NCBI GenBank assembly: GCA_043812495.1
Contig: JBDRMG010000053.1
Location: 1-33,716 of the forward strand
Length of the DNA: 33,716 nt
Direction: 5' to 3'
From: Candidatus Omnitrophota bacterium
GTDB lineage: Bacteria; Omnitrophota; Gorgyraeia; Zapsychrales; JBDRMG01
Under the pieces are notes generated by a model. That model was not told the DNA's origin, made no database searches, and saw nothing but the letters and a program-made list of their open reading frames with translations. Both the position numbers and the translations under genes were made by a program. Below, one piece after another: positions 1 through 27,000 of the stretch; the first letter of the stretch is position 1, and each line of letters opens with the position of its first letter.

Positions 1-3000
1 TCGCTTGCTCACCATGAATCTCTGTGGAGATTCATGTTCCGTCCCGGATATCCAGATTCCCCGGATAACCTAGTCCCCGATTCCCGGATAACCAGATCAC
101 CGATTCTACATATACTATTACTCACCCTTCTCGCCGCGGCCATTGTTTTAGCATTGACAAATCCAAAAGCTCTAGAGCAAGGATTATTCTTCGGCGCTGG
201 CTTTTTGGGCGCCATAATCGAACCACGGCAGTTCTCTTTAGAACCATCGACCTCAATTTCTATAGATCCGCGCGCCTACCCTGATTCATCTACCGTCGGA
301 CAAGAATGGGAGATCATCAGGAAAATTGTTCCCCAATGGAAGAAAATACAAAAAGAAGTCGATCTGTTGTGGCGCGATCCGCGCACAGATATCAAGCTTG
401 CCTATTCGTATGTTGCAAAATACGTGTCCAATCAAAAACAAATCACGCTGTTAATTGACTACAACAACCGAGGCTATAAAGCAGCCAGAGATGTTCTTAT
501 GGTTATGATGACGCCCTTGGTCATATGTTGCGTTCTATCCATCAGGAGTCGTTATCCAGATTATGATTTGAACAGAGAGGATTTGATTCATGTCGGGCTG
601 TACGGTTCCTATCAAACATCAGACGCAGGGCTTGTTTATGCGTTAGGAAAATTAAAGGATTTTGATCCAAAATCAAGCACTCTGCAAACATTCCTTGCCA
701 AAATGATAAGATGGGCCATTATCCAGGAAGTCTATAAGAAGATTTTGCCAGTATTGGGCCGAGAGATTTCTATTCACGGGTCTTTATCTTCAAAGACAGG
801 AAGGGAAGATGATTCAGATATAAAGACTTTAGAAGATAAGCTTTGTTGTTTACCTCAAACGCAAACGCCTACGGAGTCGGATGTTAGTCAACCAGCAGAG
901 ACGACGACCGCTTTGCTTCATGCTTCCCGAAGACCAACTCGAGAAAAAACAATCGATAGTTTGCGGCAAAATATTCTTAAAAAGAATCCTGCTTTACAAG
1001 AAGCCATGAGCTCTATGGATAGAGAAGAAATAGAAAGGTTAATCCATGCCTTACGGATCAAGGAGGCTATCAAACAGAACCTTAGGGATTGTTTATTTAA
1101 CGACGAATTCAGGACAACGCGATTTGGGAAGGAAAAAAGAGCAGGAGTCAGCGCCTCTATCCATAGAGCTGCGGAGCGCCTCAATGATAAATTAAACCAA
1201 CTTTTTGCCAATATCTCTCGCGTACGGATTACGGGCGCGGTCGATATCCTCAGAGAAAAAATCCTTGGTCAATATCCTTCTTTGGAAAAAGCCATGGGGA
1301 CTATGGGCCAAAGTGAAATAAGAAGGTTAATACAGACCCTATCGATCGGGGAAGAATATAAAAAACTTCTCGCCGCTTGTCTGTTCCATCAGACACTTAG
1401 CGTCGCTGATCATGAAAGACTCACAAAACCAGCAATATGGCAGATGGTACAGGGAGCTGCGCGGTCTCTTAATGAAATATTAGCGCATCTTGAGTCAGCA
1501 AAAGATCAAAAATTATCGACCGCGAAAGTCGCCAGCTATACAACATTTCCGATGACTACGGGAATGATCATCCTCGCTGCTGTTGTGATCGGATTGGCCC
1601 TGGGCGTTCTTCTTGTGCCGGGAGTGCGGAAGTGGCTCGCCCGCCTCATTAACGCGCCGGATGATCAAGAGATAACAGAAACCAGAGCACAGAAACCAAA
1701 GAGGCTGCTGGCGCAAAGCTCATACTCATCCGTGGCTGGGGACTTGAGCTTTAATACTGCGCCAGCGGCCTATGAATTTAAAGACGAATTCCAAGGATCC
1801 CGGACCTCTCTTTGGCGCGAAGTCTTCAGCATCGGTTTGACTACTTTGTTGATATTGACACCGTTTATCGGAAATTGGAGTCAAGCCTATGCAAAACAAC
1901 CATGGTCTTCGGGGGTGGATCTTAATATCGCGCCTTTCAAAGACGGTATTTATATCGGTTTAACCATTCCCTTAGATAAAAATACGCAACAAATCGAGCG
2001 TCCCGCGCCTAAAGTCCACTTGGGATGGCAGGATGTGGCCTTAACTGTCGCAACCGCTGGCTTATTCTTGATGCTGCGCAATGAGGTGAAAGCAAAAGAT
2101 CAATTCAAACATATTTTCACCAAGCATACTTATTACGAAGATGGCACCATAAAGATGACTACAACCTTAGAGCATTCTCCAGGGCCAAATGATTTGCCAG
2201 CCTATCTTTATGCAGATGTTCTGAATGCCATAGCCTTGAGCACTTTCGGCACTGTTCGTTCACATGGGTTTAATATGCCCCACCTGATCCGCAATACGGA
2301 AACCGCCGCATTTTTAGGCACATCCAAATTTGGATTAAAATATGCCACGATCGAATATCGTGACATTGACGGTTTTTCCTGGTTAATGACCGTTGGCTAT
2401 GATGCGGCCAATTCCGGGATTAAAAATCTGCTGCGTTATGGGGAAGATCCGTTTTATGTGCTCGAAACGGACTTGTTGGTTCCTTTCGTATTTCGATATT
2501 ACCCCCAGGGTAATCGTCAGAACAGTTCGTGGGATTGGAAAGTATTACCGGGGACAGTTGCAGAACTCACTGAGAACATCATTCAGGGATATCGTTTTGA
2601 CTTCAAGAGCTCTCTCAAGGTCGCTGCCCCAGTTTTTGTCAACGACGATCCTCAAGGCATGCTGAGCCATCTAAATCATAATGTGATTACATTAAGTAGT
2701 GAAGATAATGTGATACTTTGGCATGAAAAGATTCATGCCTTCAATTTTCATGATGAGATAGGAGTCACTCTCGTTGGTGATGAGGAAATTTCATCGTTAC
2801 TTAACAAAGCACCTTATTTGGGAGACTTCGGAACTTACCGGTTTTTAATAGATCACATCAGCTGGCAGCACGCTTTCAACTATTATGTTTGGTGCTATTT
2901 TAATGACTGGGCTAATAAAATTCACGGCTGGAATGAACATGACCAACTGCTTGAAGAAAGAGAACCGATGTCTTGGACGAATGATATTCGATTTAATATG

Positions 3001-6000
3001 GAATTAGAACGCTTTTCAAGAGAATTTCCATTTCACCAACAGCAGAGTATTCCGCAGCAGGATCCGTACGTTAGTCCCGAGGCCAGGATTATCAGTTCAT
3101 GGGTGGCGCTCAATCTGATGCCCAATGTCCTGCAGTCTTTTGTGGTCTCAAGCGATCCGCAAAGACGCTTTCCTGCCGATACATCGGCCGTTAAAAGCGA
3201 CACAACAATCTCTGTATCATCTGAGGAGCTACATAGCCTCATTTTGCCTGTTGGCATAATTGGCATTCTGATTCTTGCCGGCCTTGTCATAGTGGCAGTG
3301 CACCGCAACTGGTTCGGACTGAAGGATGTGTTTGATAGGGTTAAAGAAAAGATTGCTGGTGTAGTCCCCCATCGTTTTGCCGTAGGCAAAACGGACATGG
3401 GGGATCCCGCTGATCGTTTTGCCGAAGGCAAAATGAGCGGGATCCAAACAGACAAGAGGCCGTTGGTACAGGGAAGTAGCCTTCAGTCATTCCCTCGACA
3501 AGCTCGGGACGTTGCAGCTATCAGCCATCAGCAATCACATCAGCAATCAGCTGAAAGCCGAAAGCTGATAGCTGATAGCTCAAATGCGCTAACGGCCCGT
3601 TCTTTATTGGTTCGACTCGCTTCGTCCTTCGGCAAGCTCAGGATTCAGCTCGCTCACCACTGGTTGAAGAGTCGAGCCACCCTGCCCGTCCCGCCGCTTC
3701 GCAGCGAAAACCGCGGGCCGGAGAGCGAGTTCCGCCGAAGGCGGGGGGATCCAGTAATGACAACACAATTTAAGGAGATTTACTTAATAGTTTCGAGGTG
3801 GGTTAAGCGATGGCCGTGGTCTTTGAGAGATACTTTTATTTCTGAGACATCAGTTTTCAGGACGGCGACATCAGACTTAAGGATCGCGACATCAGATTTC
3901 AAAACAGCAATATCTGCCTTCATTATTCGAATATCGGCCTGGATTATAAATATTTGTTCCTTCTGCTTGCCCAATTCTTCAAATACGATATCAAGCTTTT
4001 TCTTGACAACCGATAAATCATCGATAATCGTCTTGATATCCGAATGGATGTTCTCAAGCACGACCGCGAATTCCCTGTCCTTGGAGAATTCTTTGAAAGC
4101 CTTTGTTGTCTTGCTGCCTTTGCTTTTCATAGCGAGAGTTATTGTAGGCCGGCGAAAAGTTATTGTCAAGGCAATTTCTTCCAGTACTCATGGAGCAAAA
4201 GAGAATATTGCGCCAACGGCCTCTTTCTTTAAACCTTGCGGCATCAACTGGCATGCGGTTTTAGTAGCCGTCCTTGTGACAGTGTTGACATTCTTGCCCC
4301 TGCCAAGCCAAAGGATCAGAGCCTTTGCCGAGGCTTTTGCCCAATCTTCATTGAGTTACAGCTGGAAAATAATGGATATGTACCCGGACCTTTACCGTTC
4401 TCTCAGCGCTCAGGAAAGGGCCATTTTCGACTATTTGATCGCTCGATTTGATATCCAGCCGTATCAAAAAATTCGCGTCGAATTCTTTGCCAAATACGCG
4501 CAATATATAAATGCCCGCCTAAAATACGATTCCAATTTCAGGAGTGAAGATTTTCTCGAAGAGTATTTTTGGTGGAAAGTGCAAACCGATCCGGCGTATA
4601 CGGGTGTCCGGGGCGACATAAGCGAATTTTTCAAAGGGTCCAGCGGTCAGCAGAGCGCGTGGTCCCAACGTCATATTTATGACAATCCCGACCACGTGAC
4701 CGCAAGCAACTGGATTGTCAACGATCAAATTCATCCCAATACGCACCGCGTCAAAGATAACGCGGATGCGCAAAATCACACCGCTTCTCTGAAAACTCAA
4801 TGGCATGCCGTTATGTTCTTCAGCCGTACTGTGCTCGAAGGCGGGTCCCTCCAAGAACGGGACTTGGCGGCGTTGCAGCAAATCGTTAATGCCATGCTCG
4901 CGCTCCAAAATAGCGACGGCAGTTGGTTCGGCACTTACCGTTGGGATTTTAATATTTCTCCGACGGATGAAAAACCCACTGATGACATTTCCGGCATGGC
5001 CACAAGCCTCATTGTCTATTACATCATCACAGGCGATGACAGCGTTTTGGACGCGGCCATTGCGGCCAATGATTGGATCTTAGGGCAGCAAGACTTAAAT
5101 GACGGCAATGAAACGTTTAACGCCTTTGGCTGGGGCGAAATACAAACAGACCAGGGAAGCGAAAAGATCAAAATCTTCCCGACGGTCTCGACCGCCATGG
5201 CCATAAATTCCCTCTTTGCGGTCTCAAGGTTTTCCGGTGAAAACCACGACGGCGCGGATTCCCTCAAATACATGACGCCGATTCCCTATGCCGCTGTTAA
5301 GTTAGTCTCATTTACAGGTTTTTGGGACGCAAGACCTCTGCCGGACGGCCAGCATTTTATTCTCGGCATGGCCGATACGACCGGTACGCTCATGACCGGC
5401 ACCGATGGTTTAATCGGATCGCAGACCGATCCCATTCTTGTTCTGGATTATTTCTTTGGATCCGGATGGCTCCCGTATAATCCTCAATCGCGCAACGGTC
5501 TTCCCTGGCTTAAGGATTCTCTGGAGAATACTATTGATGTCAATGATGTGACTATCGTAGGCTATCCGCAGGACCCAAGCTCCCCGAGCGTCTGGGCCCA
5601 AGGAACAGCGCAGGTCGGTATTGCTAACGGTGTTGTGGGCAATACCGCGAATGCCGAATTTAACTACGCCCAGGTGCGTCTCCTCAAAGACCCCGTGACA
5701 GGCGGCATTTATTACAGCCGGGGCAGTCCTGAACAAGGCTGGCCGTGGAATTATCCTTATGCCGATGTTACGGGCACGATTCTTTGGATGCTTAACGGCA
5801 GCGGGGTCACGGTCCTCAATATTCTTAATGTGGATGTCATGACCCCGGCGGACGAAGGCGAAGAACCCCAAGCTATTCCGCAAGGCGTTCTGCTTGTCCG
5901 CGACCCGGCCCAGCATATCAATTATCCCAACCCGTTCAATGACGAAACCGTTATCCGTTATGAACTTTACCGCAGGAGTGATATGACGGTTCGCGTTTAC

Positions 6001-9000
6001 AATATGCTGGGGCAGCTTGTCGAAGAATTCGAGGAAGGCTTGCGCGAACGCGGCGTGCACGAAATCCGCTGGGACGCCGATCCCGCGGCGAACGGCGTGT
6101 ATCTTATTCAAATCGAAGCCAGAGACGACAAACTCAAAGTGATCGATACCGAAACCGGCAAAGCCGTGAAGCTCCACGCCGCCCTGTGGCCGTTGGGGAT
6201 GATGCCGTTGAGCGGGTTGGGCTGGACGATGCTGGGGCTTGGGGTGTTGGCGGTGGTTGCGGCGGGAATCGGGATTGCCTATTGCTTGTTCAATATTTCA
6301 AGAAAGGCGCGAGGGGTGACTATCTCAATACCTTCCAGCGGAGACAACGCGAGAATATCCTTATCGCCGGTCACAAGATATGACTTAGAGGCCAGCGCGC
6401 AGGAAAGAACCATATTGTCTTTGATATCTCGACATATCTTCACTTGGATACGAGGATTATTAAAACGAGCTTTTTCTTTAATCAAGGCAATGAGAAGCTC
6501 GCCGTCCGCGCTAGGAATGGCAAAAGATAGTTCCGGTTTTCTTACGGCAAAGACGAGTTCATTCAGGAGTTCATCAGATGTAACGAGCAAAAATCTTCCT
6601 TCAACGAAAGCGTTGATAATCGCCCGCGCTGATCCTTTCAATAGTCCGCTGATGAACACATTCGTGTCAATGACGGCTTCGAGCATAATATTCGTCTCTA
6701 GCCTGATGGACGATTTTGGTGATTTGCTTCTGAGAAAGGGGATTCTTCTTAAGGCGGGCGTCAATACGAGAGAGCAATTGCTTAAATCGCGCCTTCCAGG
6801 TGTCGCGCTCAAGCTCTTGAATCAGCTTGACTCTGTCTTTGGTGGGAAGTTCCAAAATAGCTTCCTTAAGCTGCTTGGAATTCAATTTGATTTTGATCAT
6901 GACTCAAGTATAGCGTTTTCAAATAAAAATGTCAACACCCCAACCCGGCAGGTATTGCAACCTGTCTTTGTTTACGCCGGCCTCGGGCCTGTTGGGATGA
7001 TGCCGGCTACTGCAATCGACTGGATCATATTGGGGATGAAGGTGTCGCTCGTAGTGGCTGCGATGCTTTTCGTTTATCAGGCCATCCTCTATGTGAGGCA
7101 TATCAAAAACGGCGGGACTTTCTTCCCAACATTTGTTTCTCCAAAGATGAAATACATTTCTCTCAAAAACCTTATAGGATTTTTTGTATCCCTTCCAAAG
7201 AATATTGTACCGCCTAGCTGGATTTTACCTCGCCATCCTATAGATGCCCCTGTATTGGGTGATCCGGGCATAGAAAAGCTGAAGCTAACAGAGATATATC
7301 AAAGAGACATTCTTGGGATGCGTGTGTTTTCTAGAGACATTGGGCCGAACCCAACTGCCTTTATTCGTAATGATTGGGCTGTTATAAGAGGCTATGGATG
7401 TGTTAGCAGGGATGGTTGGTGGGTAACAGAGTTACGTGATGGGGACACAATAAATCTTATTCGCTGGGGTTATTATCTTGCAAAGTTAAAGAAAGAATAT
7501 GGCGTAAAGAACGCGGCGATCATTAGTCACAATGCTCATAAAGGCGGCTTAGCAATTCCTGCCGGAATGAAAGTTGTGATAGTCTCTGGATATGTGTCAA
7601 TCTTTAATTCTTTTTGGATAGGATATGTCTATGGTCTATTTCAATTGATCGATAATAGTCGATCTGCAGAAAATCGCATCATTCATCCATCTCCATTTAC
7701 AGGTTGGGATAAGCTGTTATGGGCCATTCGCATTAGGATTATGTCCATGCAGAAATCCTTAAAGCGATCCACCAGACAAATGGAATCTGCTGAATCTAGA
7801 GTAAACATCTTTATCCCAATACCATTGATTGCAGCGGATGGAGCAATGCTGGGGATTGCGGCGTTGGTGTCGGTTGCGGCGGGAATCGGGATTGCCTATT
7901 GCTTGTTCAATATTTCAAGAAAGGCGTGCGGCGTGAATATTTCCACGCCTTTAAACGGGGACAGTGAAAGAAGTCCTTGCCTTCTCGATCTCTTGAGAAA
8001 TCTTTTTATTGGAAATCTTAAGTCTTTTACGGCGTTGATCGATGCTCGTCAGGATCGCGTCGAGGCGCTTAGCCCACGTTTCCTTTTGAAGCTTACGAAA
8101 CAGCTCAATTTTAAATCTTATGGGCATGCGATCAATGATCTTCTCAATTTCCTTCTCGTTAATATCCAAAGACATCTTAATCATAATTCAAATCCTCCTT
8201 GTTTTGATTTCAGTATAGCGTTTGCGGGTAAAGATGTCAATGTCCGGCATTATCAAATCGCCAAGTTGCCGGTCTATAGCTTCGCCGCCGTCGATCCGAT
8301 GGGGATGATGGGGATTGATTTGTCGGTTGAGGTTGTCGTCTTAGGCCTCGTTGGCGTCTTGTTGGTGGTTTTGGCAAGGATGATGGTAAAGGCGATAATG
8401 ACAAATGGCAAATATCAAATGTCCAATAAATTCCCAATGCCCAATGTTAAATGGGTTTTGATTCATTGGAAATTTGTCATTGGTCATTTATTTGATATTG
8501 GGAATTTTTCATTTGGCATTAAGAACGAAACCTTGTCTCTTCCAGCAACATCCTATTGCCTCTTCGACCCCACGGGCTTGAGCCTGATTCCGATGGTTCT
8601 TCCGCTCTTAGGCGCGATCATGAATCGGGCAGATGTTGAAAGCAAAAAAGAAGAAATCATTGCTCGATTTGTCGAATGGTGTAAAGAGAGCCATATTGTG
8701 CCAGATGCAAGTAATGTTGAGAATTACTTAAGTGCTTTTACGGGCGGGTTGGACGATATTGTCTTGGAGCTTGCGTTAGAAATCTGCGGACAAGATGAAG
8801 AATCAGCATTAGCCCTTGCTGAGCAGTTAAAAAGCGACCTTATTAAGGGAGCAACCGCAGCCATAGAGAGCGAAGAGTCCGCCGAAGACAAAGAAAAACA
8901 AGAGGCGCTGGAAAAGGAACAACAAGAAAAGTTTACTCTGACAAAAGAGTTTAAAGTCGCATTTAGCGATCTTGGCTCCAGCAATACGGATAAAGCGCAT

Positions 9001-12000
9001 CACGGAGAAGCAGTCATAAATCGATATATTCAAACACAAGGCAAGAGCGTCATTTTAAAATTAGTCGAAATACTCCAGGAATTAAAAAGTAAAAAAGATG
9101 GTCATGTTAAAAGAACATTTCATTCCGGAAGAGGACAAGACCTCAATAAGACAGCCGTGAGAAATCAGGTCAGAAGAATCAAACAACTGGTTTTGGACAC
9201 ATGCATCGCGTGGCTTGGCGAGGGCAATGAGGCCCAGGTGGCCATGGCCGAGCGCTTCATCCGTCAACTGGGAGGAAAAGAAAATTTAAAACATGCGCTT
9301 GGGGAGCTTGGAAGAAGAGAAAGAAAAGGGCGATTAAGCGAGAAAGAAGCGGCCCAAAAAGAAAATATCAATCGCATTCTCGCGGCTCTCGCCGTTATGC
9401 TCTTGGTCCTTATTCCGGCGGCGCTTATTTTCGGTCAATCCGCTTTCTACGCTCAAAACATGCTGCCTTTGGCCGCGATGGTCCTGGCCGGAGTTCTACA
9501 AAATTGCCAGGAAAAAGAAGACCCCGGTTTGTTAGATATCGTTACCACCAGGCAGTTGCTGCTTCGACAATTAGAGAAAGCGCTCGAAAATCCCGAGGGT
9601 ACAATAGCCACATTCATCCAGATTACAAGTGAACTCATGAGACTGGGCCTGAAAGAAAAATTAATTGTCTTAAGCGCGGCTGTTCAAAAGGAAGTTGGAA
9701 GACTTAAGGACGTTGTTGAACAAATCAAAGCCGGCAAAGACGCGGCTGACTTGGCTTCCACGCTCCAAAGCATAAGCCAAAATCTGGATACGGCCGGCCT
9801 CGATGACATCATTCAAGCGGTTGATAAGATACCGCGGATTGAAAGAAACTTATGGCATGACGTGAAAAATGCTCTAGGGTTCATCACGGGCGGTCTCGGC
9901 CTTCTCCTGGCCCTGGAGGGCCAGAAGCAAATCGACAAAGCGCAGGAATTTCTGGATTTGATTGTGAAGGGAATCCATGACGCCGCGGACATCATCGGGG
10001 GCGATGCCCTTTATGAAGGAGAAACAGAGGATGACACGACCATCGGACTGTCCGCCGTGTTCGGCCTGCCTTTAAGCTGTGAGATAGCGCTTTTAGCCGG
10101 ATTGGCGGTTGGCCTTGCGCTGGCCGTGCGGTGGTTAAGAAATATTGTTTTCAGCCGCACAAACCTCCCTTATCGAGGTCATAACTTTGTTGTTTTGGGC
10201 TATGCGTTCGGGGTGCTGCTGGTCGCGGCCGGGCTTTTTATGGCCTTGGTCGCGTCAGTTGAGTTGATACGAGCCGGCCAGATCGTTTTGGGTATCGTGG
10301 GAATTTTGTCAGGCTCTATCAATATCGCCATGGCCTCGGCGCTCGCAAGACTTTTTGGCATGTATCATTATGAAAACAAAAAAGAAGCCGCTGTTTCCCG
10401 CCAAAAGAAAATATTCAACCGAATCCTGCCTTTGACTGCCGGCATCACCATCTTGATCGGTCTTATGAATATCAGCTCTCTGACGACCGTTGGAATTATT
10501 TTCGGAATTCTGACCGTGATCGCGGGCAGTGCGGTCATGATTCTTCAGCCGCACCGGTTTGACCGGGCAGAGAAGGCCATGGCGCAGAAAACAGCTAATC
10601 AAACCCTCAGACATCTCGAGAATGGAGATCTCCATAAATGGGACCTTTGGGTCAAAATTCTCGAAAAGCTTCTTCGCTATGGCGGTCCTTTGGCCTGCGG
10701 ATGGAAAGTTTTCAGGAAAGACGGCACCATGAAAAAAGGCGTTCAGAAAGAAGCTCTGAAATTCCTCAAAAAAGCAGATATTATCCGCATCACCGAGGCA
10801 CCGGAAGAGTTCAGCCACATACCGCAAAATATTTTCCAGAAATTGCAACAAAAAGGCTGGCTCATTGTTTGTACGGATTCTCCTTATCTTTTGAACAAGA
10901 ACGGAAAACAATTCCTCTTTGCTTTAACGCTTCATGAAAAAACAGGCTACCTGAATGAAGGGAAATATATCACCCTCGGCTTACTTGATCAAATGCGGGC
11001 GTTAGGCGGGCTTGAGGAACTTAATGATCTCATCGCTTTCGAGAATAAAAACCAGGAACAAAAGAAGGAAGATGCTGGCGAGTCCGAAGTATTAGCCCGG
11101 AAAATACTCGATGTTCTCAGAATCCGGCAAAAACAGAAAATGACGGTTTTGATCCTTTGCGATTACAATTTGGAGCGCTCCGTTATGGCCAGAGCTCTTA
11201 TCGATGCGAGCGCGGACGAAGGTCTGCTGGATAGAATCGACATCATTACGGCCGGGATTTCTTTATACGAAAACTATCTCGACAGAGGCGCCGAGAGGGA
11301 GCTTCTCAGAAGATTGATCCAGGACCAACCAATCCTCTTTGGCCATATCCCTGTGGCCGCGCAAAGCCGTCAAATCAGACAAGCCGGTCTAATCTTGGTC
11401 ATGACGGAAGAACAAAGAGCCTTTCTGATATCAAAATATCCCGAGATTGAAAAGAAAATATTCCTGCTTCTTGGGGATAAGGATTTACATGCCACTCAAG
11501 ATGACCGCAAGATTATTAATGGCAAGACCTACCAGCCTTTAAGGCGAACTATCGAAAATCATTTGGACAGTATTCTTGACCGCATCGAATCAGCCGCGGC
11601 GGATTACGCGGGGGTTATCCGCAAAGAAGACGATTCGCTTAATAAAACCACTGAAGCAGAAAATGGTCCAATGGCCGGGTCCGGGCAGGGGCAAAAAATG
11701 CCATTGCCAACAAGCTCTCAAGAATTCCAATCACCCGCCGGAAGACTTTTGGATGCGTTCAAACTCCATGAAGCTAAAATTATTGAACAATCCGAGAATA
11801 ATATCGTGGAGGGCTTAACCATTTACACAATTGAAACCCCTGAGAGAATCGACAGGACCGAGGCGCCGCAAGGATTGGAGATTTTGGATAATGAATTGGC
11901 TGCGGTCAGACGCTTCGATCTTCTGTATAACGATAACAGTGAGCTTATTGCGATCTTCCCTGTGCTTGAAAGGAAAGCAGAAGGTGCCCGATACATTGAT

Positions 12001-15000: not shown

Positions 15001-18000
15001 CCTCATTCCGATTTTGTCGATAACTTACCCGTTGGATATTTCGTCTCTGGGAAACCGCAAGCCAATCCGAACCTCATAATCGAAAGAGAAGAAACACTTT
15101 ATAAGCGTTGGATTCAAGGAACCGCGTTAGAACAATTTGTAAGAAGTATAACAATTAAGCAGAATAGCGAATCAATTCTCGAAGGGACCTTGGTAACAGA
15201 TTCCTACGAGATTCCTTTTGAGATTCAGGTCCAAGACGGAATCCTCACCGGGCCGGCCGCGGCGATTGAAGATAACGAGGATCGCCGCGCATACTCCAAG
15301 GAACTTGTTCGCGTCATTCTCAAGTGGCTTAAAGACGAAGGATTCGTCCAAGGCCGGTTTTTTGTCAGCAATAAACATGCTGTTTCTTTTCTTGAGCAGA
15401 CATTGATGTTTTGGGCTGGCTCAGAAGAACAATCTTTTCGAACGGATACAAAGGGCGCGATTTATACGGTCATAACCTATGACCTTACAAAATTGGATCT
15501 TGATGCGCAATTAAGCGTCCGGGATACGTTACCAAACAGGAACGCATCAAGCGATTCAAATGATATAGGCGCGCTCTTCTGGGATGCAGCGTCTTTCTTA
15601 ATTTTTGTCTTGGCCATGATGATATTTATCGCATTGATTTCCAGGGTCATAAAAATCGCTTATCGCCGCTTTGTTATCCTTAGGGGCATTCAAAAAAGCT
15701 TCCCCGTTCTTTATCCCAAAGACATGATCGGTGCCGTTGAATCCGTCCAAAGAGTCAAAGACCCTTCTGTTTCCCGGCTTGACAAAGTCGGACACGCCCT
15801 TGCCCTGTACCAAATGTCCTATCGCCAGTTTAAAGTCGTGAGAGACGCCCTTTCCGGGCATATCCATCTCTTTGGTCTCATGACGCTTTCCGCGTACAGT
15901 CATTTCGGACATAACCAAAAGATCTTTGGAAAACTTATGCACGATGAGATTTTCCATCTAGTCGGAGGAGTTTATAATTTATTACCCTATAAGTTGACGA
16001 CTTTGGTTAAAGGCCCAAGCGGCATGTATCTCAATGAGAATTTCTACGGCATGCCTTACCTCTTCGACCCTTACTGCCGAAATAGGACCAGCGCTTTTGC
16101 CCGCAGAGAAAACGAACGCTTCAGGATCGATTTTAGAGCCGTTGCCGATATTGCGGCCGATCAAGGTTTCACGCTCACCTTTGAGATTGTTCGATACAAT
16201 GGGCACCAAGAAGATGCAAATGGTTCACCCATTCAGATCACAAGCGATGGCCGCTATGTGATCGTCTATTATCGCGTGTCCTCACCCTTAGAAGAAGCGA
16301 CTTATCGTGTCGCCTATCGCACGAAGGTCAATGAGCTTCAGGAAAGGCTCGATGGGACGCAAGAAGCAGACGAAAGACTTGCTCTCTACTTTCGGCTGGC
16401 CAGGCTCTATTTCGATCTAAAAAATTATAGTAAAGTCGTGGACTTGGTCGATAGGACAATCGCAGGACTGACGCGCGTGGATGCGTTTAGGCATGGGCCC
16501 TTAAAACGTAAAATGGTCGTCTACTATTCCTGTTTAAGAGAACTTTTCCAAGCTAAAGACTTTGACGAAGCAAAGACGTTGGATCATCTATCCGAGATCA
16601 GAGAATCATTTGCCTTTGAACTTGTTGCTTTTGAGACATCACCGCTGAAACCAGAAATCGAAAAAGCAATCAACACAATCGACCGGCTTACGGTCCTTGT
16701 CGAGAGTGGAGGAACAAAAACCATGGAACGACCCGCCGATCTTAGAGGTATGCTCAATAACGTTATCGCTGTCAGTAATCAGATATTTCATCAATCTCCA
16801 AGTCGGCAGGACCATAAACAAAGAATCAGTGAACTTTGCGCCTATATCAATACGATTGAACCAGGGACAGACGAATTTGAGCTTCTCAAGCATGTGCTTT
16901 GGAAGATGACAAATCTAGGCTTTATTGTGACGGACGATTTATTTGCGATGCAAAGAATCCTTAAGACAGTCCTTTTAAACAAACGACTGATGGCGTATCT
17001 CTATTCCCATTTGCGGGAGCTTGAGAAAAACGTAACCACAAGTGCGCAATTCCGGTCCTCTCTCAGGGCAGCCACAAAAGAAGCCGGGGCCCATCAGAGA
17101 CGCGCCGATGCTATTGAAGATTACTCCATTAGCGGTTTAGGCCGGGAAGCCGTGGAGAAAGAGATTAAAGACCTGAAGGGCGGCAAAGACTTGGAGGGCG
17201 CCATAGATTTTCTGATTAAAGACGGTCTTATTCTTGAGCCGGACCGTTATGCGCTACTCACCGAAGGTGTCGAAAGAAGCGATGTCAGGTTTGCCGCGAT
17301 TTACAGGGCTGTCGAGATTGCCGCAAAGAATCTCAACGTCAGCATAGACGTGGTGATAAAACTCTTGCGTATGCGCGGAGTGTATTTTGTCATGGCGCCC
17401 GACGGCTGGGGCATCGGCGAATCGATCGCGCTTTATCGCAATCAGCCCGTGATCATCATGGATAATAATCGCAACGAAAGGAACATTGCTCACGAAATCG
17501 AATCCGTGCTCACGGGTTTTGACCATCAAGCCATTCTTCTTATCGACCGGGGGCAAGTGAATAAAACGCTTCGGGAATTGATCGATCAAAGAATGGAGGA
17601 CGCGCTTTTAAGAGGCATTTTCCCTGAGATCCAGGATTACAACTCAAAAGGCAGCGAAGGCCTCATCGAGGCCGGGCCGGTGGATATCGATGCGCTGGTC
17701 AATCAAATCTTGTCCGTTTTACGCAAAAAACGAATAACACATGAAGGCACGAAAGAAGAGAAATTAATTTCTGAAATTATACGCTTTACCAAGAAAATTG
17801 AGCCCTGGTTTATTCGCTTCATTCGCGAAAAGATTCACCCAGGCAACCTGAGAATTTGCCGCAAGACCGCGTTTGCTTTGGCGCGCATCTTGTCAGATCA
17901 GTTTGGCCTGCCCATATTTGGTTATGATTCAATCAGACTGGAAGTTGTAAGTGGAATATTAACCAATCCAATCAATGGTCATTATTTTGTTTCACTCATT

Positions 18001-21000
18001 GTCGATAACAAAAAAGCTCTGTTTCTTGACGGATCCCGTTGGTTTGACGATGATTTCATTTTAATCCATGAGTACGATGATGCCATAAAGCAGCTTGATA
18101 TTTTTGAATGCTCTGAGGCCAATGTTAGTCAAACTGCTTCCGGCCACACGTTATTATTGGCTATGTTAGCCGCAGGATATCGAGAGAGAAAGAAATTGAT
18201 GGCAGGACAGCTTGAATTGGATAAAGAAACAAGCGATTTCGTTGATCGTATCCGACAAGAGTTTTCCAAACAGAAGTCCCGCCTTGGAATCATAGCATCG
18301 CCATTATCCATTCTCGGCCTTCTCGGCCTCTTCGCAGCGGCTTTGATCATCATCCCTCACGCCCTGGCCGCCGGCTTCTTGGGCCAGGTGTCGATGTTAG
18401 CGTTGGTACCGGTGTTGGGAAAGATAGGAGAAAACCTTGAATCCAATAGAAAGATGGAGAGGCTAGTTATAGGATTGATAGAAGCATTAAAATTTATCCG
18501 TTTAGATGAGAATGATATTGAAATTATGATTGCATTTTCTGGGGAAATTCACGCTGAGGATGCTGTCAACAAATTCTTAAAAGACCAGGATTTCAGAGAA
18601 GAAGTTCTTTCATCCATGGTTATCGCTTTACCGAATAATTTGCAAAAGTTGTGGGATACGAGTGAATCCCTTTCTTTAGAGAAACACCAACTTATGTTTG
18701 TCATTAATCGGGTTGCCCAGCGCTTGGGACAAACAACGATTAATATCGTAAGTCAAGAAGATAATATTCAACATCAGTTGAAAATTCCTCTTGATGTAGG
18801 CGTTGTAAGAAGATCTATTCGGTATTTTGCATTGACTTCTAGTTTGGATACAGCATTAAAAGATCTGCTACGTAGAACTTTTACGCAATCCACCGGTTTC
18901 GAATTTAGATTACGCAACCTTGCCTTGGATGAACGCGCAAAGGAATTTTTGACTGCATTTCTGCAAACCAGAGACGGTTCTCAAGCAAAAACCGGAGAGG
19001 CCTTTAGTTATTTGCTGAAATTGACAAAAGCGGGTCAGACGCCTAATTTTGAAGAGATCCTGAGACAAAGAAGAGAAAGGTTGCATCAAATAATAGAAGA
19101 AATCGAGGCCTATGAGAATATGATGGCCGGAACAAAAGAAGACGGTTCTTCCATTGATTATGAACGCGACGTGATTATGGGTGGCTTGCGGCCCCCTCTT
19201 GGCAATAGGGAAGATACTCTCAAAGAAATGAATGTAATTAATGACATTCTTGGGTTAGATGAGAATTCTGTCCCTGCTCTTTTTGACGAAAGAATATTCC
19301 ACATTGGAAGAATTCTTGCTCCGCGGCATAAGCGTATCCGAAGCATTTCTGATTATTTAGAGATGTATTTTCGCATCTATCCCATCGACAAGCACCAAGA
19401 GGAGATTTCCGAAATAGCCCTAGTTGTCCTGAATAAGCTCTATATGTTTCTCTCGGAATTTACGAAACTTCTTAGGGGATTGGAACAGATTCTTGATGAC
19501 GAGAAGGTTATCTTCCGGGAAGAAATTTTATTTTTACGTATACCTAAAATTATGGTCATGAAGGAAAAAATCATTGATGCGTATAAGGATGCACAAGAGC
19601 TGTTAAGCAGGCAAGAATATGCAAAAGCCATAAGATCCGCCTCAGCAATCTTTGCAAATGTCGATAGCGAATTATCTAATAATACATATCCCACGCTTAT
19701 TAATCGTCAGTTTACCTCTATCCTGGCTAAGAGTGCCCGCGATGAGAAAGTTCAAAGAGTCTTATCAAGACTCAACGAAATCGATTTTGACAATGCTCGC
19801 TTAAACGCTTTTATGGTTGGTGTCACTACGGAGGGGGCTGCTTATTCATTGTTGAAATATCCCTATATACGTAGCTCGGATAATGTCATTGGCTTCGGAA
19901 TGGAAATTGACCCTTGGGAATCTATCAAGCAGGCTTTTTTGATTTATGAGAATATTGATATTTCTGGTATTGAGCGAGAGTGTCCCAGAGAACCTCTTAC
20001 AACTAATATTCTTGTTTTCGGCTCACGGGTAGATTTGCTTATTACCGAACTTCTCAAAAATGCCATTGTATATGCAAAATTTAATGAAAATACGCGTTCC
20101 TTGACCGGAAAGATTCGCGAAGACCATAGAGAGACAAAAGAAGGATTTCTTTATACAATTGAAGACAACAACAATGGTATCCTCCCGAGAAATTTAGAGA
20201 AAATCTTCTATGTTTGTGAATCAACTAGGGGGGATCTTTATAAGAAATTTGCAGGAGGAGGCGTTGGCCTTGCCGAAGTGAAAAACATCGTGGATATGCA
20301 CAATGGAAGCATCCAGGTTATAAGTAGAGTCCGTGGCGAAATGGCGTATGAGATTAACTATAATAACGGAAAGTTTTCAAAGGTCAAATCCGTAAATCAG
20401 AAAAACGAACAAGCACATTTAAGGTATCCAACCGGCACCAAATTCATTATAACTCTACCTTATCCTATGATTTATGTTAATCTTGTTGCTCCACCTTTTG
20501 AGGAAAGGGGGGAGAATAATGAATTACCGCTTACAAAGCTCGACTTTAGTGTCAATAAAGACAAAGAAAACTTATCGCAGAGTGGATACCTTGAATTATT
20601 TACAGGTGCCGTTGATTCTTCTCTTGCGATGGGATTGGCGGCGGCTGCGGTGCTGGCAGTAGTCACGGCCACAGGGTTGATTTTAAGAAAGAACGAAAAA
20701 GTGAATGGGGCGAGGGCGCCGGGAGTCAGTCAATTTATAAGTAATCAAATTAAGCCGCTGTGGCCAAAAGTCAGAAATGCGCTTGCTCGACCTCTTACCG
20801 TGGCTGGTGGAAGAGCAAGTTTGGCCACAGCGGCTTTTGTATTATCCGTGGTCCCGACGCTCCGACGTTCCGTCGAAGATCCGGATCCCGTCTTCCACAA
20901 TTCAATATCAGAAAATTTCTGGACTGCTCCGATACCACGAAATAATGAAAAGAATGTCGGGGGTCGGAGTCCCGACCGACAACGAAGTTGGAGCGTCGGA

Positions 21001-24000
21001 AGTGGGGCATCACGATTGCTTCCTAGCGGGATTTTTGCCTCCAATCAGCTTCAATTAAATAGGACAAAGTCGATTATATCGTTCCAGCACAGCCAAGCTC
21101 ACGCCTTCTTCCTTCCTTTACTTTCTCTTATGAACAGTGAAACCACCACAGGATGGCTTATGCCCATAGTGACTACTTTGGTCGTTATTTTCATTGTCGA
21201 GAAAATATTTAGGCTCAAAGCACGAAAGATACTTAATGCGTCGGAGTTAACCGAAGAGCAGATTCCTCAACAACTGGCGAAATGGCATTTTATTGCCGCG
21301 TTTTCTCTCGCACTTCTGGGAACTCTCAGCCTCAACTTAGAGATGCTATGGAACGCGCTCGCAAATACCCAAACCGCTGAACCGTTAAGCTTGATTATAA
21401 ATATACTCCTCATTTTCACGGCGATGTTTATTATATCTCTGTTTATGTTCAGAGGAGCTATACGCAGAGAAGTAGAAGCTTCACGAAAGGAAAAGGAACA
21501 AGAGACGGATGGTAGTAGTGAGACCCTCAAGCCGGAAGACCTCGTCGAATTCGCCGCAGAACATGGCTTCATCAAAATGCTGGCTGAAATTGACGGGAAA
21601 ACGCCGCAACAGATAGCATCTCTCTTTGTCTCTTTCAACGAAGTGAATTCGCCCGGATTCAACCTTATAAAAATGCCGCTGCGCTCAATGGTATTATTTA
21701 TCAACAACAACCCATCTCTTTGTGAAAGAGTTTCCAAAATGAAAGTCACCCGGCGGCATGGAAAGATGAACCGTGTGGAATTCCTTTTTAACCCTGCCCA
21801 AGGTCCCTATGCGCACCTTAGCATAGAGAGAAACGGAGATTCTTCCCAATGGTCCTGGTCTTATCGATTGGGACGCAAATTCACATTGTTCTGCTTTGTG
21901 GGAATACGGCGAATTATTAGCATCGTAAGGGTGGAGAGAATGTTGACAGAAGAAGATTATCTGTTGTCCGAGGGCGGCCTAAAACCAACGCCGCAAGACA
22001 GCTCCGACACGGCCGGTTCCTCAAGCCAATCATCCGAGCTGCTTTCAATCTTCCATGGGCCTCATTTTGTTTCTCTCCTAAGCGGAATTATTTTGATCAT
22101 CCTAACCGGACTACTTTTAAGATACGCAAAGCAGGTGCGGGCAGAGGATATCAAGTGTCAAGTTTCAAGTGTCACGTGTCAAGGCAATCCCTATCCCCTC
22201 AACGCTGAATTTAAAGATCCTCAAAGACAGAAGGTACAAGATACAAGAAATCCGTCAAATTCTTCGAATTTGACGAGACCTCGGCAATTTGTTGGAAACA
22301 AATTGCCGGGCAAGCTCCAAACAATACTCAAGAATCAAATTTCAATATTCAAACGTTTGGGATTTGGAAATTGGAATTTGGATATTGTTTGGAATTTGTT
22401 ACTTGGTGCTTGGAAATTCAAATCTCCTTTGTCCCCAATACCTCAATCTCCCAATTTCCTAGTCCCGGGTCGCCCCATCGCCGGATCACCCCATCAAACT
22501 CGCTCTACGCTATCCGCTATCCTTGAGCGTTTAGCGTTTAGCGTAGAGCGTAGAGTTGATAAAGACCTATACGCTAACCGCTATACGCTATCCGCTATTC
22601 CTCTTACCTCCGCGGCCCTCATCCGTCTTCGCCCCGCCTTCGGCGGGGCTACGCCGGATTTCACCCAACAGACTATGAAGACGGATGAACCCGGTGAAGC
22701 TAAACGTGAAGTCCCGCCGTCTTTTGGCGGGATGAAACAATTTAGCGAAGACGGGTCATATCCAGGCACCACGCCTGCGTGCCGTAATGTCGCACTTCGG
22801 CGTGCAGGCATGGGCTTTAACCAGTGGGGCTTCATCTCCCTCGCTGCCGCGACGGTCCTCTTCTTTATCATGCCTCATAGTACGGCGCTAACTTCTGACG
22901 CATTTCTTTTAGGTAAGATTCAGAATGTACCGGTAGACAATCTTTCTCTTTTAGGGCGGACAGGGAAAAACCTAAAGCAGCTTGATGAATTCTTCCACGG
23001 TGAGATTGGCGTTGCGGATCAAAGACCGCAAGGTACCCTTGGCGAGGATTTTGTGGTTGGGAATAGACAAAACGCTACACATACCTTCCTTTTCCATGAT
23101 GATATGAGAGCCGTAACGCGCGATAATCCATCCGTCCTTACGAAAGGCCTTGACAGCCTCTTGGCCAGAAATATCAGAAGGAATCTTGGGCATTTATATC
23201 GAAACCTCATAAAGAAGTTCTTCTTTATGCTTGGCTTTTTCTCTTTCAGCGCGCCTATTGAGCACCTCAAGACAGCCTCTCATCGCGTCCTTGATGTTTT
23301 CCTTAACTTCCTTAAGAGTTCGTCCTTGACTAACGCAGCCAGGAATGGCGGGACATTCAGCAACGTACCAACCGTCCTCGTCTTGCTTTATGATAGTCTT
23401 ATATTTCATCTTGCGCTACCTCCTTATTTTCACTTCGCACTCAAAGATAGCACGAACGCACATGTAAGTCAAGCCATAGTCGCGCCATTAGGCGCAATGA
23501 GTGAAAACACAATCATCGACAGTCATCTATTGGCCTTTGCCCTTTTGACAGGGGTCATCTTCCTTGCGCTTGTGGCGGCGCTTTTAAGATACAGTAAGCA
23601 GATTCGGGCACAGAATGGCATTGACCATCAGACATTGGTCACAAGTTCCGCCACAAACTGTGGCGAGACCTCGCCGCTTTACGGCGGGCACAGGGCACAA
23701 GTCACAAGTAGAACCCTAACCTCTAACCCCCATTTCCTAATCTCTAAAATAACAAACCCGCATTGGATTCATTGGATTAGAGGATATCCGGGGATCCGGG
23801 GATCCGGGACTAGGATATCAGGATATCAGGAGATTGGGGACGTAAATGATTTGTCCCCGATTTCCCAATCGCCGGATTCCCTAGTCCCGAGTCACCCGAT
23901 CTCCAAATCACCTCACCAAACTCGCTCTACGCTATCCGCTAAACGCTATACGCTCATAACCTCCGCGGCCCTCGTCCTCATCGCTGCCGCGGCCATTTTT

Positions 24001-27000
24001 ACTTCTTTAGCGGAGCAGGCGTTTGCTTCTAGCGCTGTTCTTGCGCCTTTGGCATTGATCGGATCAATTGCAACACAGGATTTTGGCGATTTTGTTTGTC
24101 AATATGATCCGGATGGCAATATTAACTATATTGTCAATCAAAATGGGGAATTATTGGCCCTTTATCGGCATCTTGATGAACAAATCAACGAAAGCTCAAT
24201 CGAAAGAGTTAAAATTCGGAACCTATTTGCTAAGGACCCGGAATACATTGTCCTTGAGCGTGATTATTCTGATGGCCATATCGCGTTTTCTATCCTTGTG
24301 AATAATGAATTCGCGGGCTATCGACGTTTCCAAATAGAAGACAGAACTTTTGTCTTGGAAAAGATTAAAGTTAAAGATCACTTCAGCAATCAAGGCATTG
24401 CCATGAGTATTTTAAATTGGCTAGCCCTGGAAGCAAAAAGAAAGTCCTTTGGGCTAAAAATTGAAGGCATACACAATCCGCTCATTACTTATTTTGCTGG
24501 CAGAATTTATGATCCCGAAAGAAAGATTATGTTTTCTGCCGTTCCGGGAAAATGGTCTGCGCATGACCATGTTGATGCTTCATTACTAGACTCCGAAGTC
24601 GTCGGTCCCTTAGAAATCATGACAGGGGAAGAGAGGCCGGCGTTGTTGCGGCCTCAAAAAACGACTGATGGAAACTTAATAACAAAATCATCAATCGAAG
24701 GCGTTGATATTAAAATGGATGGACTCAAAATCATAGCGATTGATCAGGAAAGTGGCAAAACATTACAAATCGAGTACAAAGGACTTATTTCGCTCTCCGG
24801 CTGGCCAAAACCGATCACAACGAAACAGCCAAGAGACCAAAAACCAATAGGCGGAGTTTCCTCAAATGTTGATAATCGTAGATCGCATCTTGCGGCAACA
24901 CCTTTGACCGGCACAGAAGCCGTGATTAGCATCGATTTTGCAATAATATTGTTAATTATTGCCCCGCTCGCCTGGTGGATTTATTCCGCTCTAAAGAAAA
25001 GAAGACAGACGGATTACTTGGACGAATATTATAATCAATTCAGCAAAATGCCGAAATTCAGCGTTCTTATCCGGGATATCTATTGTCAAGGGAAAGCTGT
25101 TTATCGGCAATACTTCTTCGGGCGATATTACGGAAAGGTGAAGAAACCCTTTGTCTTCCTCGCGCGGTTTATCAAAAACCTGCCTCGTGGAATACTTCTT
25201 CTCTTCTTGACGATCGGCGCGATCCTCGCCGTCATCATTTTTATTTTGCTATCTGCGGAAGCGTTTGCTTTGAGCGCCATGTTGTTGCCTTTCTTGGGCT
25301 TGATACAATCGGACGATAAAGACCATAACTCTTGGTATGCATCCGAGCCAAAAATGTTTGTTGACCCCGATGTATACATCAATGGCCTCAGGGCAATTGG
25401 CCGGGCCATAGACGAATGGCGATTCCACGAGGGAATGCAGTTGGCTGACATCTACCGACTCTCCCGGGGAGATCCAAAGCCGGAAATATTTGATGACGAA
25501 GTTTTGGAAGCCTATCGGCCTGCCATAGAATTGTTTAACCAACTTTTGGGTAAAGAAATGAAAAGGGAGTTCGGCCCTTCTACCCTGCTTTATGGAATAA
25601 AAAGATTGCATTATCTTTTCTCAATAGCTGATGCAAAGACTCGTCAGCAATCCGGGGGGCTGCGTCCTGACGCCCTTGGTCAGTTTGAACGATTGCTTGA
25701 GTATTTGTTTAGCGACGAATTTGGGGAGCGATTACACAAAGAGGCCCTTGATGCCATCAGCGATATTTTCATCGAACTCCTCAAAAGTCAAGTTTTGGGT
25801 TCCGGAAATCACCGCGTCTTTGGGCTTGCCATGAACTATATTCTAATCAAAACCGGATATAGTCCGTTGATCTTGACAGATAATAATGTCGAGGAATACC
25901 TGAGAGCAGCCTATCCGATCATTTCAGAAGATGAAATTCTAAACGATGCGGCTTATGCGCGGATGAAGAAAGACATGCAAGCGCTGCTTGAAAAGAATGT
26001 CAGGCGCATAGAGGACAAGCTCCAGAAACGTCTGTCCGGCGTCAACGGCCTTCTGACACGCGTGGAACGGGATCCTCGCTACGGTTATTTGAGAGACCTT
26101 GCGGATCCGCAAGGTACGGGTGAGCTGGCTGCGGACGAGAAATGGAGTCACGTGAATCAGGAAGATTTTGACTGTGGCCAAAGAGAAGAAAATACGAGAG
26201 AGTTGAGGCCTCATTTACCCGTCATTGTCGCTTTTGCCAAATGGATCCTGGATTGCGAGGATTTTAAAGGCAAAAAACTTGTCTTCTTGGGGCGGTCTTG
26301 TGATCTTGTCTATGACGCGGCCGAGGCGCTCACACATTTCGATTCCGCATACCAAGATCGGCAGGGAGATCTTTTTGTTGTGGATTATCCCGGACAGTCC
26401 TTTGAGCATGTCTTGCCCATCAAGCTGGCAGGGTATGCGCAAGAAGCGATTGGCCTTGACCCAGAAAATACTCAGGGTATCGTTCTGATTAATGAGATGA
26501 TTTTTGGGGCAAAAGGTCATCTCTGGAAACAGATTGAAACTCCGGAAGAAAAAATTGATACGGTCATTATGCACGCACGGGGCCGGAAAGGAAAAAATAC
26601 CTACAGCCAGAATGTCCCCCGCGAAGAACGGCAGGCCGTCATAAACGCCGCTTATTGGCTCGGCAATCGTTATGACAGTGCCAGAAATTATGACGTAAAA
26701 GGAGGTGGAGTCAATACACCGACTCTGAGATACAGTTATTTAACAAATTACGCGCTTAGACGTCTCCTGCACAAAATGCTTATTGCGGATGAAATCAAGG
26801 GAATGCAAAGGCCTCAAGGGATCGCCATCCTCGGTTGCGGACGCTGGGCCTTTTTGAGAATTATTCCGAAACTTTTGGCCTTGCGCCAAAACCCGGATTT
26901 TCCGTACTTTAGCCAAGATCAAATCATTTATCTGGTCCGTCCGCGCGACCCGACATCCAAAAAGAACAGTCCCTGGCGGAACAATATCGACGGGGTTTTA

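Follow-up and report, generated by a model that had tools for sequence, protein, structure and literature searches.

Giant proteins of the Archaeovorin type are known from Omnitrophota, and cutting by a C39 or S8 peptidase has already been suggested for them. West-Roberts et al. suggest, in their main text, that the cutting is autocatalytic and state that the cleavage points are unknown; whether the giants function as single chains is presented there as an open question, with the lack of cleavage points as the obstacle (bioRxiv 10.1101/2023.11.21.568195). Nielsen and Lui set aside internal signal-peptide calls as chunking artefacts in their main text (bioRxiv 10.64898/2026.06.07.730766). The main texts of these two papers contain neither "RAPP" nor "arrest" nor a sequence motif, and the portion of Seymour et al. 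at hand has no mention of "cleav". C39-like domains are also listed in polymorphic toxins in the part of Zhang et al. 2012 at hand. A literature search returned no relevant paper on a bacterial polyprotein with an internal signal peptide and signal peptidase, and none on Omnitrophota with an arrest peptide. Here we describe the single reading frame that fills a 33,716-nucleotide contig of a Candidatus Omnitrophota bacterium (JBDRMG010000053.1 of assembly GCA_043812495.1; the whole stretch is hereafter the window). From sequence comparison we propose, at what we regard as an even balance of truth and error, that the encoded chain would be processed into individual proteins, anchored in the membrane or exported, with most cuts falling at a recurring motif that its own C39 peptidase reads.

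Frame +1 is stop-free over the whole window (1..33714, + strand), comprising 11,238 codons and remaining open at both ends. The window is the entire contig C53 of a 1.94-Mb, 90% complete genome (G000), in which about a dozen giant-gene pieces total about 92,000 amino acids. It is an internal piece of a giant gene, arranged as a cassette array with enzyme modules of 200–700 residues between hydrophobic tags. As in Archaeovorin-type giants, many helices and enzyme domains of mixed kinds are strung along a single giant frame. A gene start with a signal peptide and a C39 peptidase, the sole C39 match in G000, lies on contig C45. We infer that C53 and C45, two separate contigs, are parts of one gene. 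The SecA-DEAD domain lies within the giants of relatives G007 and G011 and weakly in that of G018; in G000 it occurs only in a 997-amino-acid frame and a 476-amino-acid frame at the start of contig C55. The C39-type gene start was present in 26 of the 31 genomes searched and opens frames of up to 85,816 codons. Seven relatives (G001, G002, G007, G011, G018, G022, and G030) were picked for long frames from the 25 with a C39 start and are kin, not independent samples; scans for related loci yielded only three and one, and L079 and L082 duplicate G001 and G011. A low-depth DNA sequencing run contributed short pieces with no differences listed, which were of no help in judging conservation, and none of the listed runs was of RNA. 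Helices were called by hydropathy and oriented from basic residues, and the ordinary proteins used for comparison were a crude set of 1,504 frames.

The chains of MARTX-type effector polyproteins are cut by an internal cysteine protease. The Omnitrophota giants share with them one long chain, variable enzyme cargo and a built-in cysteine protease, whereas the protease family is different, the N-terminus is of the Sec type, membrane tags stand at most boundaries and the modules are far more numerous.

Unsupervised expectation maximization on 670 boundary regions of the eight genomes returned, at the starts of the tags, the motif [SGED]-[ED]-[STK]-L-x-[ACGS]-[FL]-[VIL]-[PL]-[PL], with the core L-x-[ACGS]-F-[VIL]-x-P/G. 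With the scored genome held out, the motif exceeded a column-permuted null in G000 (n = 176, p = 1.1e-6) and G018 (n = 163, p = 2.9e-6), as well as 281 ordinary helices (p = 3.9e-7 and 0.0018, respectively). In-sample scores of at least 7 were reached by 73/138 boundary regions in G007, 26/62 in G011, 7/42 in G001, 29/176 in G000, and 13/163 in G018, against 5/281 ordinary helices. In two of four tail domains the motif begins exactly at the natural last residue of the domain, and the ends of homologous stretches were nearer the tags than expected by chance (32/67, p = 0.0025). Stand-alone G000 homologues used as boundary markers gave seven usable cases, one of them near a tag. In the G011 giant, a complete gene of housekeeping type (amino acids 23318–23866) starts four residues past a tag; it shares 65% identity with a 543-amino-acid G000 protein that stands alone.

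The segment directly behind C39, which lay outside the training set, has a motif score in the top 0.3% of windows in 8/8 giants. Its V, F, W, and G are invariant in all eight, as is the C, H, D triad of the peptidase. The predicted structure has a predicted local distance difference test score (pLDDT) of 80–88 through the C39-adjacent motif and below 50 from residue 175, and the closest structural match of the C39 model is the double-glycine protease 6mpz (LahT150). In the part of PMC6363468 at hand, LahT reads positions −4, −7, and −12 and cuts after GG, GA, or GS. The C39 of such PCAT/AMS exporters has the same fold and triad, and the segment here is likewise hydrophobic at −12 and −4 with Gly at −2. 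By contrast, the giants lack a transporter, the putative leader follows its protease on one chain, and position −7 varies, with S, D, or N at −1. G-[SDN] occurs only at the C39-adjacent site; this segment fits the double-glycine rule partly and the internal copies fit it poorly. We predict that the motif is cut and that C39 does the cutting.

Helix orientation and the linkers also bear on the integrity of the chain. Isolated helices in the G000 giants comprised 90 out-to-in, 32 in-to-out, and 8 unclear cases, and adjacent single helices shared their orientation in 31 of 60 pairs, which in an uncut chain requires hidden or re-entrant crossings. Several linkers of the window contain nested genes on the minus strand: a coiled-coil gene with better coding on that strand (3780..4169), a PIN-domain gene with a small, probably antitoxin-like upstream partner (6279..6900), a small gene paralogous to that partner (7951–8184), and a hicB-hicA toxin-antitoxin pair with both members at or above the Pfam cut-off (22972..23409). 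Since the frame stays open through intact antisense genes, read-through is selected, and these linker residues probably have no fold. Heptamer-like palindromic repeats, read in frame, flank antisense inserts at 50–106, 22419–22603, 23780–23956, and 3515–3574. Tag and linker DNA is duplicated between boundaries of the window (6229–6355 and 7846–7972, 127 nucleotides, 83%; 22114–22149 and 23581–23616) and also in G000 contigs C65, C11, and C42, which suggests the tags as recombination points for module shuffling.

Motifs resembling ribosomal arrest sequences were also in excess. RAPP occurred 28 times in 437,000 amino acids of giants (3.8 expected; all eight genomes) and not once in 480,000 amino acids of ordinary G000 proteins, and ranked among the three most over-represented four-residue words in giants; R[AG][PG]P occurred 54 times against twice. 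Arrest-like motifs fell within 30 residues after a hydrophobic segment in 27/68 cases, with 4.5 expected. The excess was confined to the sense frame, and 39 codon spellings were used in 52 motifs. In the window, the sole arrest-like motif of the searched set is RAPG (20713–20724), preceded by an out-to-in helix (both within 20629..20724, +); its equivalent in G001 is RGP. According to the part of PMC12992588 at hand, ribosomes stall at RAPP-like motifs, which bacterial proteomes avoid. The four-residue motifs are the same as in the RAPP/RGPP/RAGP arrest peptides described there (ApdA, ApdP, and SecM) and are kept out of the ordinary proteome here, but the known cases lie near the C-terminus of small leader proteins, whereas here many copies lie inside giant frames (PMC12992588). 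The excess suggests that ribosome pausing is programmed into the coding frame, the motif being otherwise excluded from this proteome.

In the proposed mechanism, one long frame would be translated and the ribosome would pause at RAPP-type motifs, so that the tags could be handed to the membrane or to the protease. C39 at the likely gene start would cleave the chain at the tags, each enzyme retaining a hydrophobic anchor at its N-terminus, and true secreted modules would be exported via internal signal peptides. In its fullest form, which we advance tentatively and consider somewhat doubtful, the Omnitrophota giants would be true polyproteins of up to 86,000 codons, paced by RAPP, cut at dozens of motif copies by their own C39 and finished by signal peptidase at exported modules, amounting to a swappable library of membrane-tagged enzymes that is possibly delivered into a host cell.

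A preliminary description of the window suggested that the chain may be cut into separate effectors at signal peptidase I sites (A-x-A) behind internal hydrophobic stretches, like a viral polyprotein. Signalase is known to cut viral polyproteins. Its five sites are exact in frame +1 (AYA 1885–1893, AFAEAFA 4321–4341, ALA 18361–18369, AFA 24019–24027, and AFA 25261–25269), and a hydrophobic stretch precedes each of them; at a hydropathy cut of 1.6 over 19 residues, all of these helices qualify except that of site 1. By inspection, all five stand before a new module as described, but at sites 3–5 the A-x-A is separated from the module by another short hydrophobic tag. The layout of a signal peptide (basic n-region, hydrophobic h-region, and A-x-A 3–12 residues on) was found at sites 2–5. 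The five sites fall into two kinds, 1–2 and 3–5.

At sites 1 and 2, a soluble module begins whose far end is marked by an out-to-in helix. Site 1 (1822..1893, +) reads in the sequence as a weak hydrophobic helix, with Glu just before it, and AYA, followed by a 440-amino-acid soluble module for which no homologues were found in the searches made; the module is closed by the boundary motif with the window's top score (11.2) and an out-to-in helix (3220..3294, +). Site 2 (4252..4341, +) is an internal signal-peptide-like helix with AFAEAFA. The module behind it (4342..6162, +) belongs to a secreted family and carries a type IX secretion system (T9SS)-type/FlgD tail at 5923–6132; a boundary motif with L-H-A overlaps the last residue of this tail domain and is followed by an out-to-in helix (6163..6288, +). 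Homologues of the module match alpha/alpha-toroid families weakly, and 12 of 18 start with a signal-peptide-like N-terminus as judged by eye. Two other large proteins (P0008 and P0016) have an internal export-like signal ahead of a domain of the same family. A word-index search with the module recovered the tail only, and a PDB sequence search gave no informative match. It is credible that site 2 is an internal export signal, and signal peptidase I would cut such true internal signals before secreted modules, at site 2 and probably at site 1. Internal twin-arginine-like and lipobox-like signals were seen in giants (G011 amino acids 27876–27901; G022 amino acid 40673; P0016; P0008) in numbers too few for significance; internal lipoboxes numbered two in giants and one in ordinary proteins, which is not significant.

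At sites 3–5, a short hydrophobic tag ending h-h-G-x-[IV] comes after the A-x-A. Site 3 (18310..18426, +) consists of a helix, ALA and a short tag ending P-V-L-G-K-I, and precedes an HATPase_c (histidine-kinase-like) module (18454..20544, +) with orthologues in the giants of G001 (43.6%) and G011 (39.4%). Among four relatives of this module, two lie in giants with the tag but without the helix, one lies in a giant with neither, and one is a stand-alone gene (L081:2525–4873). The latter encodes a 782-amino-acid histidine-kinase-like protein with a signal-peptide-like N-terminus, a cytoplasmic-type enzyme that is apparently addressed for export. Site 4 (23953..24069, +) consists of a helix, AFA and a 14-residue tag ending G-S-I; the sole relative of its module, in G001, has no helix, and L-Y-A takes the place of helix plus A-F-A there, with the register kept, 14 residues ahead of G-S-[IV]. 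Site 5 (25192..25305, +) has a helix, AFA and the tag L-S-A-M-L-L-P-F-L-G-L-I (motif score 4.3), a tag type that stands alone in G001. The signal-like helix at sites 3–5 thus appears to be an accessory added ahead of a conserved tag. Judged by eye from known motifs, the modules behind sites 4 and 5 may be GNAT-like and Fic-like, respectively; neither Pfam nor NCBIfam returned a match of that sort.

A-x-A was also counted across genomes. The window frame contains 76 A-x-A in total, and A-x-A lies downstream of 10 of its 35 called helices. In the G000 giants (80,515 amino acids of giant pieces, with C45 and one C63 piece left out), it followed 14/71 in-to-out and 9/126 out-to-in helices (p = 0.011), compared with 23/245 ordinary internal in-to-out helices (p = 0.022 against the giants' 14/71). 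The seven relatives gave 32/153 in-to-out versus 22/258 (p = 5e-4). Pooled over giants, the rate after in-to-out helices was 55/313, against 44/492 and 29/340 for control helices, and equalled that of the N-terminal signal-peptide candidates of the genome (31/175). Shuffling the 12 residues after each helix, however, gave an expectation of 48.9 for the 55/313 (p = 0.11), and AA and AxxA spacings in giants were likewise at shuffle expectation. The N-terminal candidates, as a positive control, exceeded their shuffles (31/175 versus 21.8 expected, p = 0.014; A[FYLH]A, 13 versus 4.3, p = 0.002). In the window alone, six in-to-out helices were called strictly, and three of them had A-x-A (AxA, p = 0.52; A[FYLH]A, p = 0.053). 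The alanine fraction of c-regions was 0.128 in giants, 0.126 in N-terminal candidates, and 0.089 in ordinary proteins. Since the shuffle removes the excess, the excess reflects alanine-rich, signal-like c-regions and not a proven −3/−1 pattern. Met was not in excess before giant helices as fossil starts (60/313 versus a 25% background). A signal-peptide weight matrix trained on the N-terminal candidates was confounded (its mixture collapsed and out-to-in helices scored higher) and was dropped. Compared with type I signal peptides, the five sites share basic residues, a hydrophobic helix and an alanine-rich c-region with A-x-A, but they are internal, the pooled sites show no spacing excess over composition, and behind sites 3–5 come a further hydrophobic tag and enzymes of cytoplasmic type.

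These counts bear directly on whether signal peptidase I, acting at A-x-A after each internal helix, could be the main processing enzyme, which we consider improbable. The genome has a lepB-type gene, in-to-out helices of G000 and the seven relatives have A-x-A behind them about twice as often as control helices, c-regions are as rich in alanine as those of N-terminal candidates, and the site-2 domain belongs to a secreted family with an internal export-like signal before it in P0008 and P0016. Against it, the excess disappears in composition-matched shuffles, neither the helix nor the A-x-A is conserved ahead of orthologous modules (sites 3 and 4), and an in-to-out helix is lacking at most boundaries. 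The enrichment named as a test in the preliminary description is seen relative to control helices but not above composition, and A-x-A cleavage as a general mechanism was not sustained. Its wider idea of a processed polyprotein retains support from helix orientation, antisense linkers, the C39-like motif and signal-bearing stand-alone relatives, and the A-x-A sites likely explain only few of the cuts. Cutting by an intramembrane protease, either a prepilin peptidase after L-x-[ACGS] (class III-like) or a site-2-type (M50) protease inside the tag, is quite improbable. It would suit a motif at the polar-to-hydrophobic edge with a small residue followed by Phe, in a genome that has one A24 gene and an M50 domain within the giant piece of contig C11, but Glu or Asp at +5 is scarce (7/148 strong motifs), and upstream of the motif acidic residues outnumber basic ones (363 versus 200), unlike in the real prepilins of the genome. 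Nor do the tags resemble exosortase-type C-terminal sorting signals: the 90% complete G000 gave no PF09721 (exosortase) match, and four tag regions had no NCBIfam match.

That products are split on the ribosome at RAPP/RAGP stalls, with no protease, is very improbable: the strong sense-frame-only excess near helices speaks for it, but there are 68 motifs for 670 boundaries and one in the window, and PMC12992588, in the part at hand, describes arrest and not chain release with continued reading. An uncut giant is an unlikely alternative. Signal-like helices would then be uncleaved anchors or leftovers of captured genes, the tags re-entrant anchors, and the motif structural. The A-x-A spacing at composition level agrees with this, a hairpin of short arm and helix could hold the neighbours on both sides in the cytoplasm, sites 1 and 2 are compatible with ordinary signal-anchor/stop-transfer topology, and Nielsen and Lui treat giants as intact membrane proteins in their main text (bioRxiv 10.64898/2026.06.07.730766). 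It gives no reason, however, for the match of the motif to the C39-adjacent segment, for its start at the natural end of a tail domain, or for the tolerance of hundreds of residues of antisense-derived linker, and the Met excess that fossil starts would leave before helices is not seen.

Several observations weigh against cutting at the motif by C39. Scores of at least 7 were found at 0/49 boundary regions in G022, 0/21 in G030, and 0/19 in G002, all three keeping C39, so the boundary motif is lineage-dependent. A stricter hand-made pattern was not enriched (27 versus 26.7 shuffled in G000 and 11 versus 13.7 in the held-out G018), neither the site-3 nor the site-4 tag reaches a score of 4, the orthologue of the kinase module in giant L080 has no tag in front, and the starts of homologous stretches were not significantly nearer tags than chance (27/67 versus 23.3, p = 0.125). 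The internal motifs do not follow the pattern of GG/GA/GS ends with hydrophobic −4, −7, and −12; they often carry Pro (Pro/Leu in the learned motif) where Gly is expected, and the register hinted at by site 4 (a cut after L-x-A) differs from the double-glycine register. The assembly does not join C53 to C45. Topology is the main gap: C39 stands behind a signal peptide and should therefore be outside the cytoplasm, and much of the cargo needs cytoplasmic cofactors. Either the chain is threaded out in full to act on or inside a host, a possibility hinted at by the stand-alone kinase module with its signal, or the cutting inside is done by a different protease.

Further cargo of the window includes a SidJ-related pseudokinase module (13624..14976, +; NF033874, 413 bits against a cut-off of 300) and, by domain match, LMWPc (11146–11493) and a 4-alpha-glucanotransferase (GH77; 27892..29850, +), as well as GFO/IDH/MocA, FBPase-like, and weak sigma-70-like domains. 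Elsewhere in G000, the giant piece of contig C11 (L009) contains M50 and M48 peptidase domains (amino acids 2893–3031 and 742–907, respectively), possible further processing enzymes. At C20:33579–33670 and C63:17005–17168, two giant frames overlap on the same strand with a frame change, representing a gene seam, a frameshift or an assembly error.

A boundary motif that matches the protease-adjacent site allows predictions at the level of single residues, points to a candidate enzyme and offers a means of splitting the giants into foldable units. Should cutting at this motif by C39 hold, the "largest bacterial proteins" would in effect be operons set down in a single frame.

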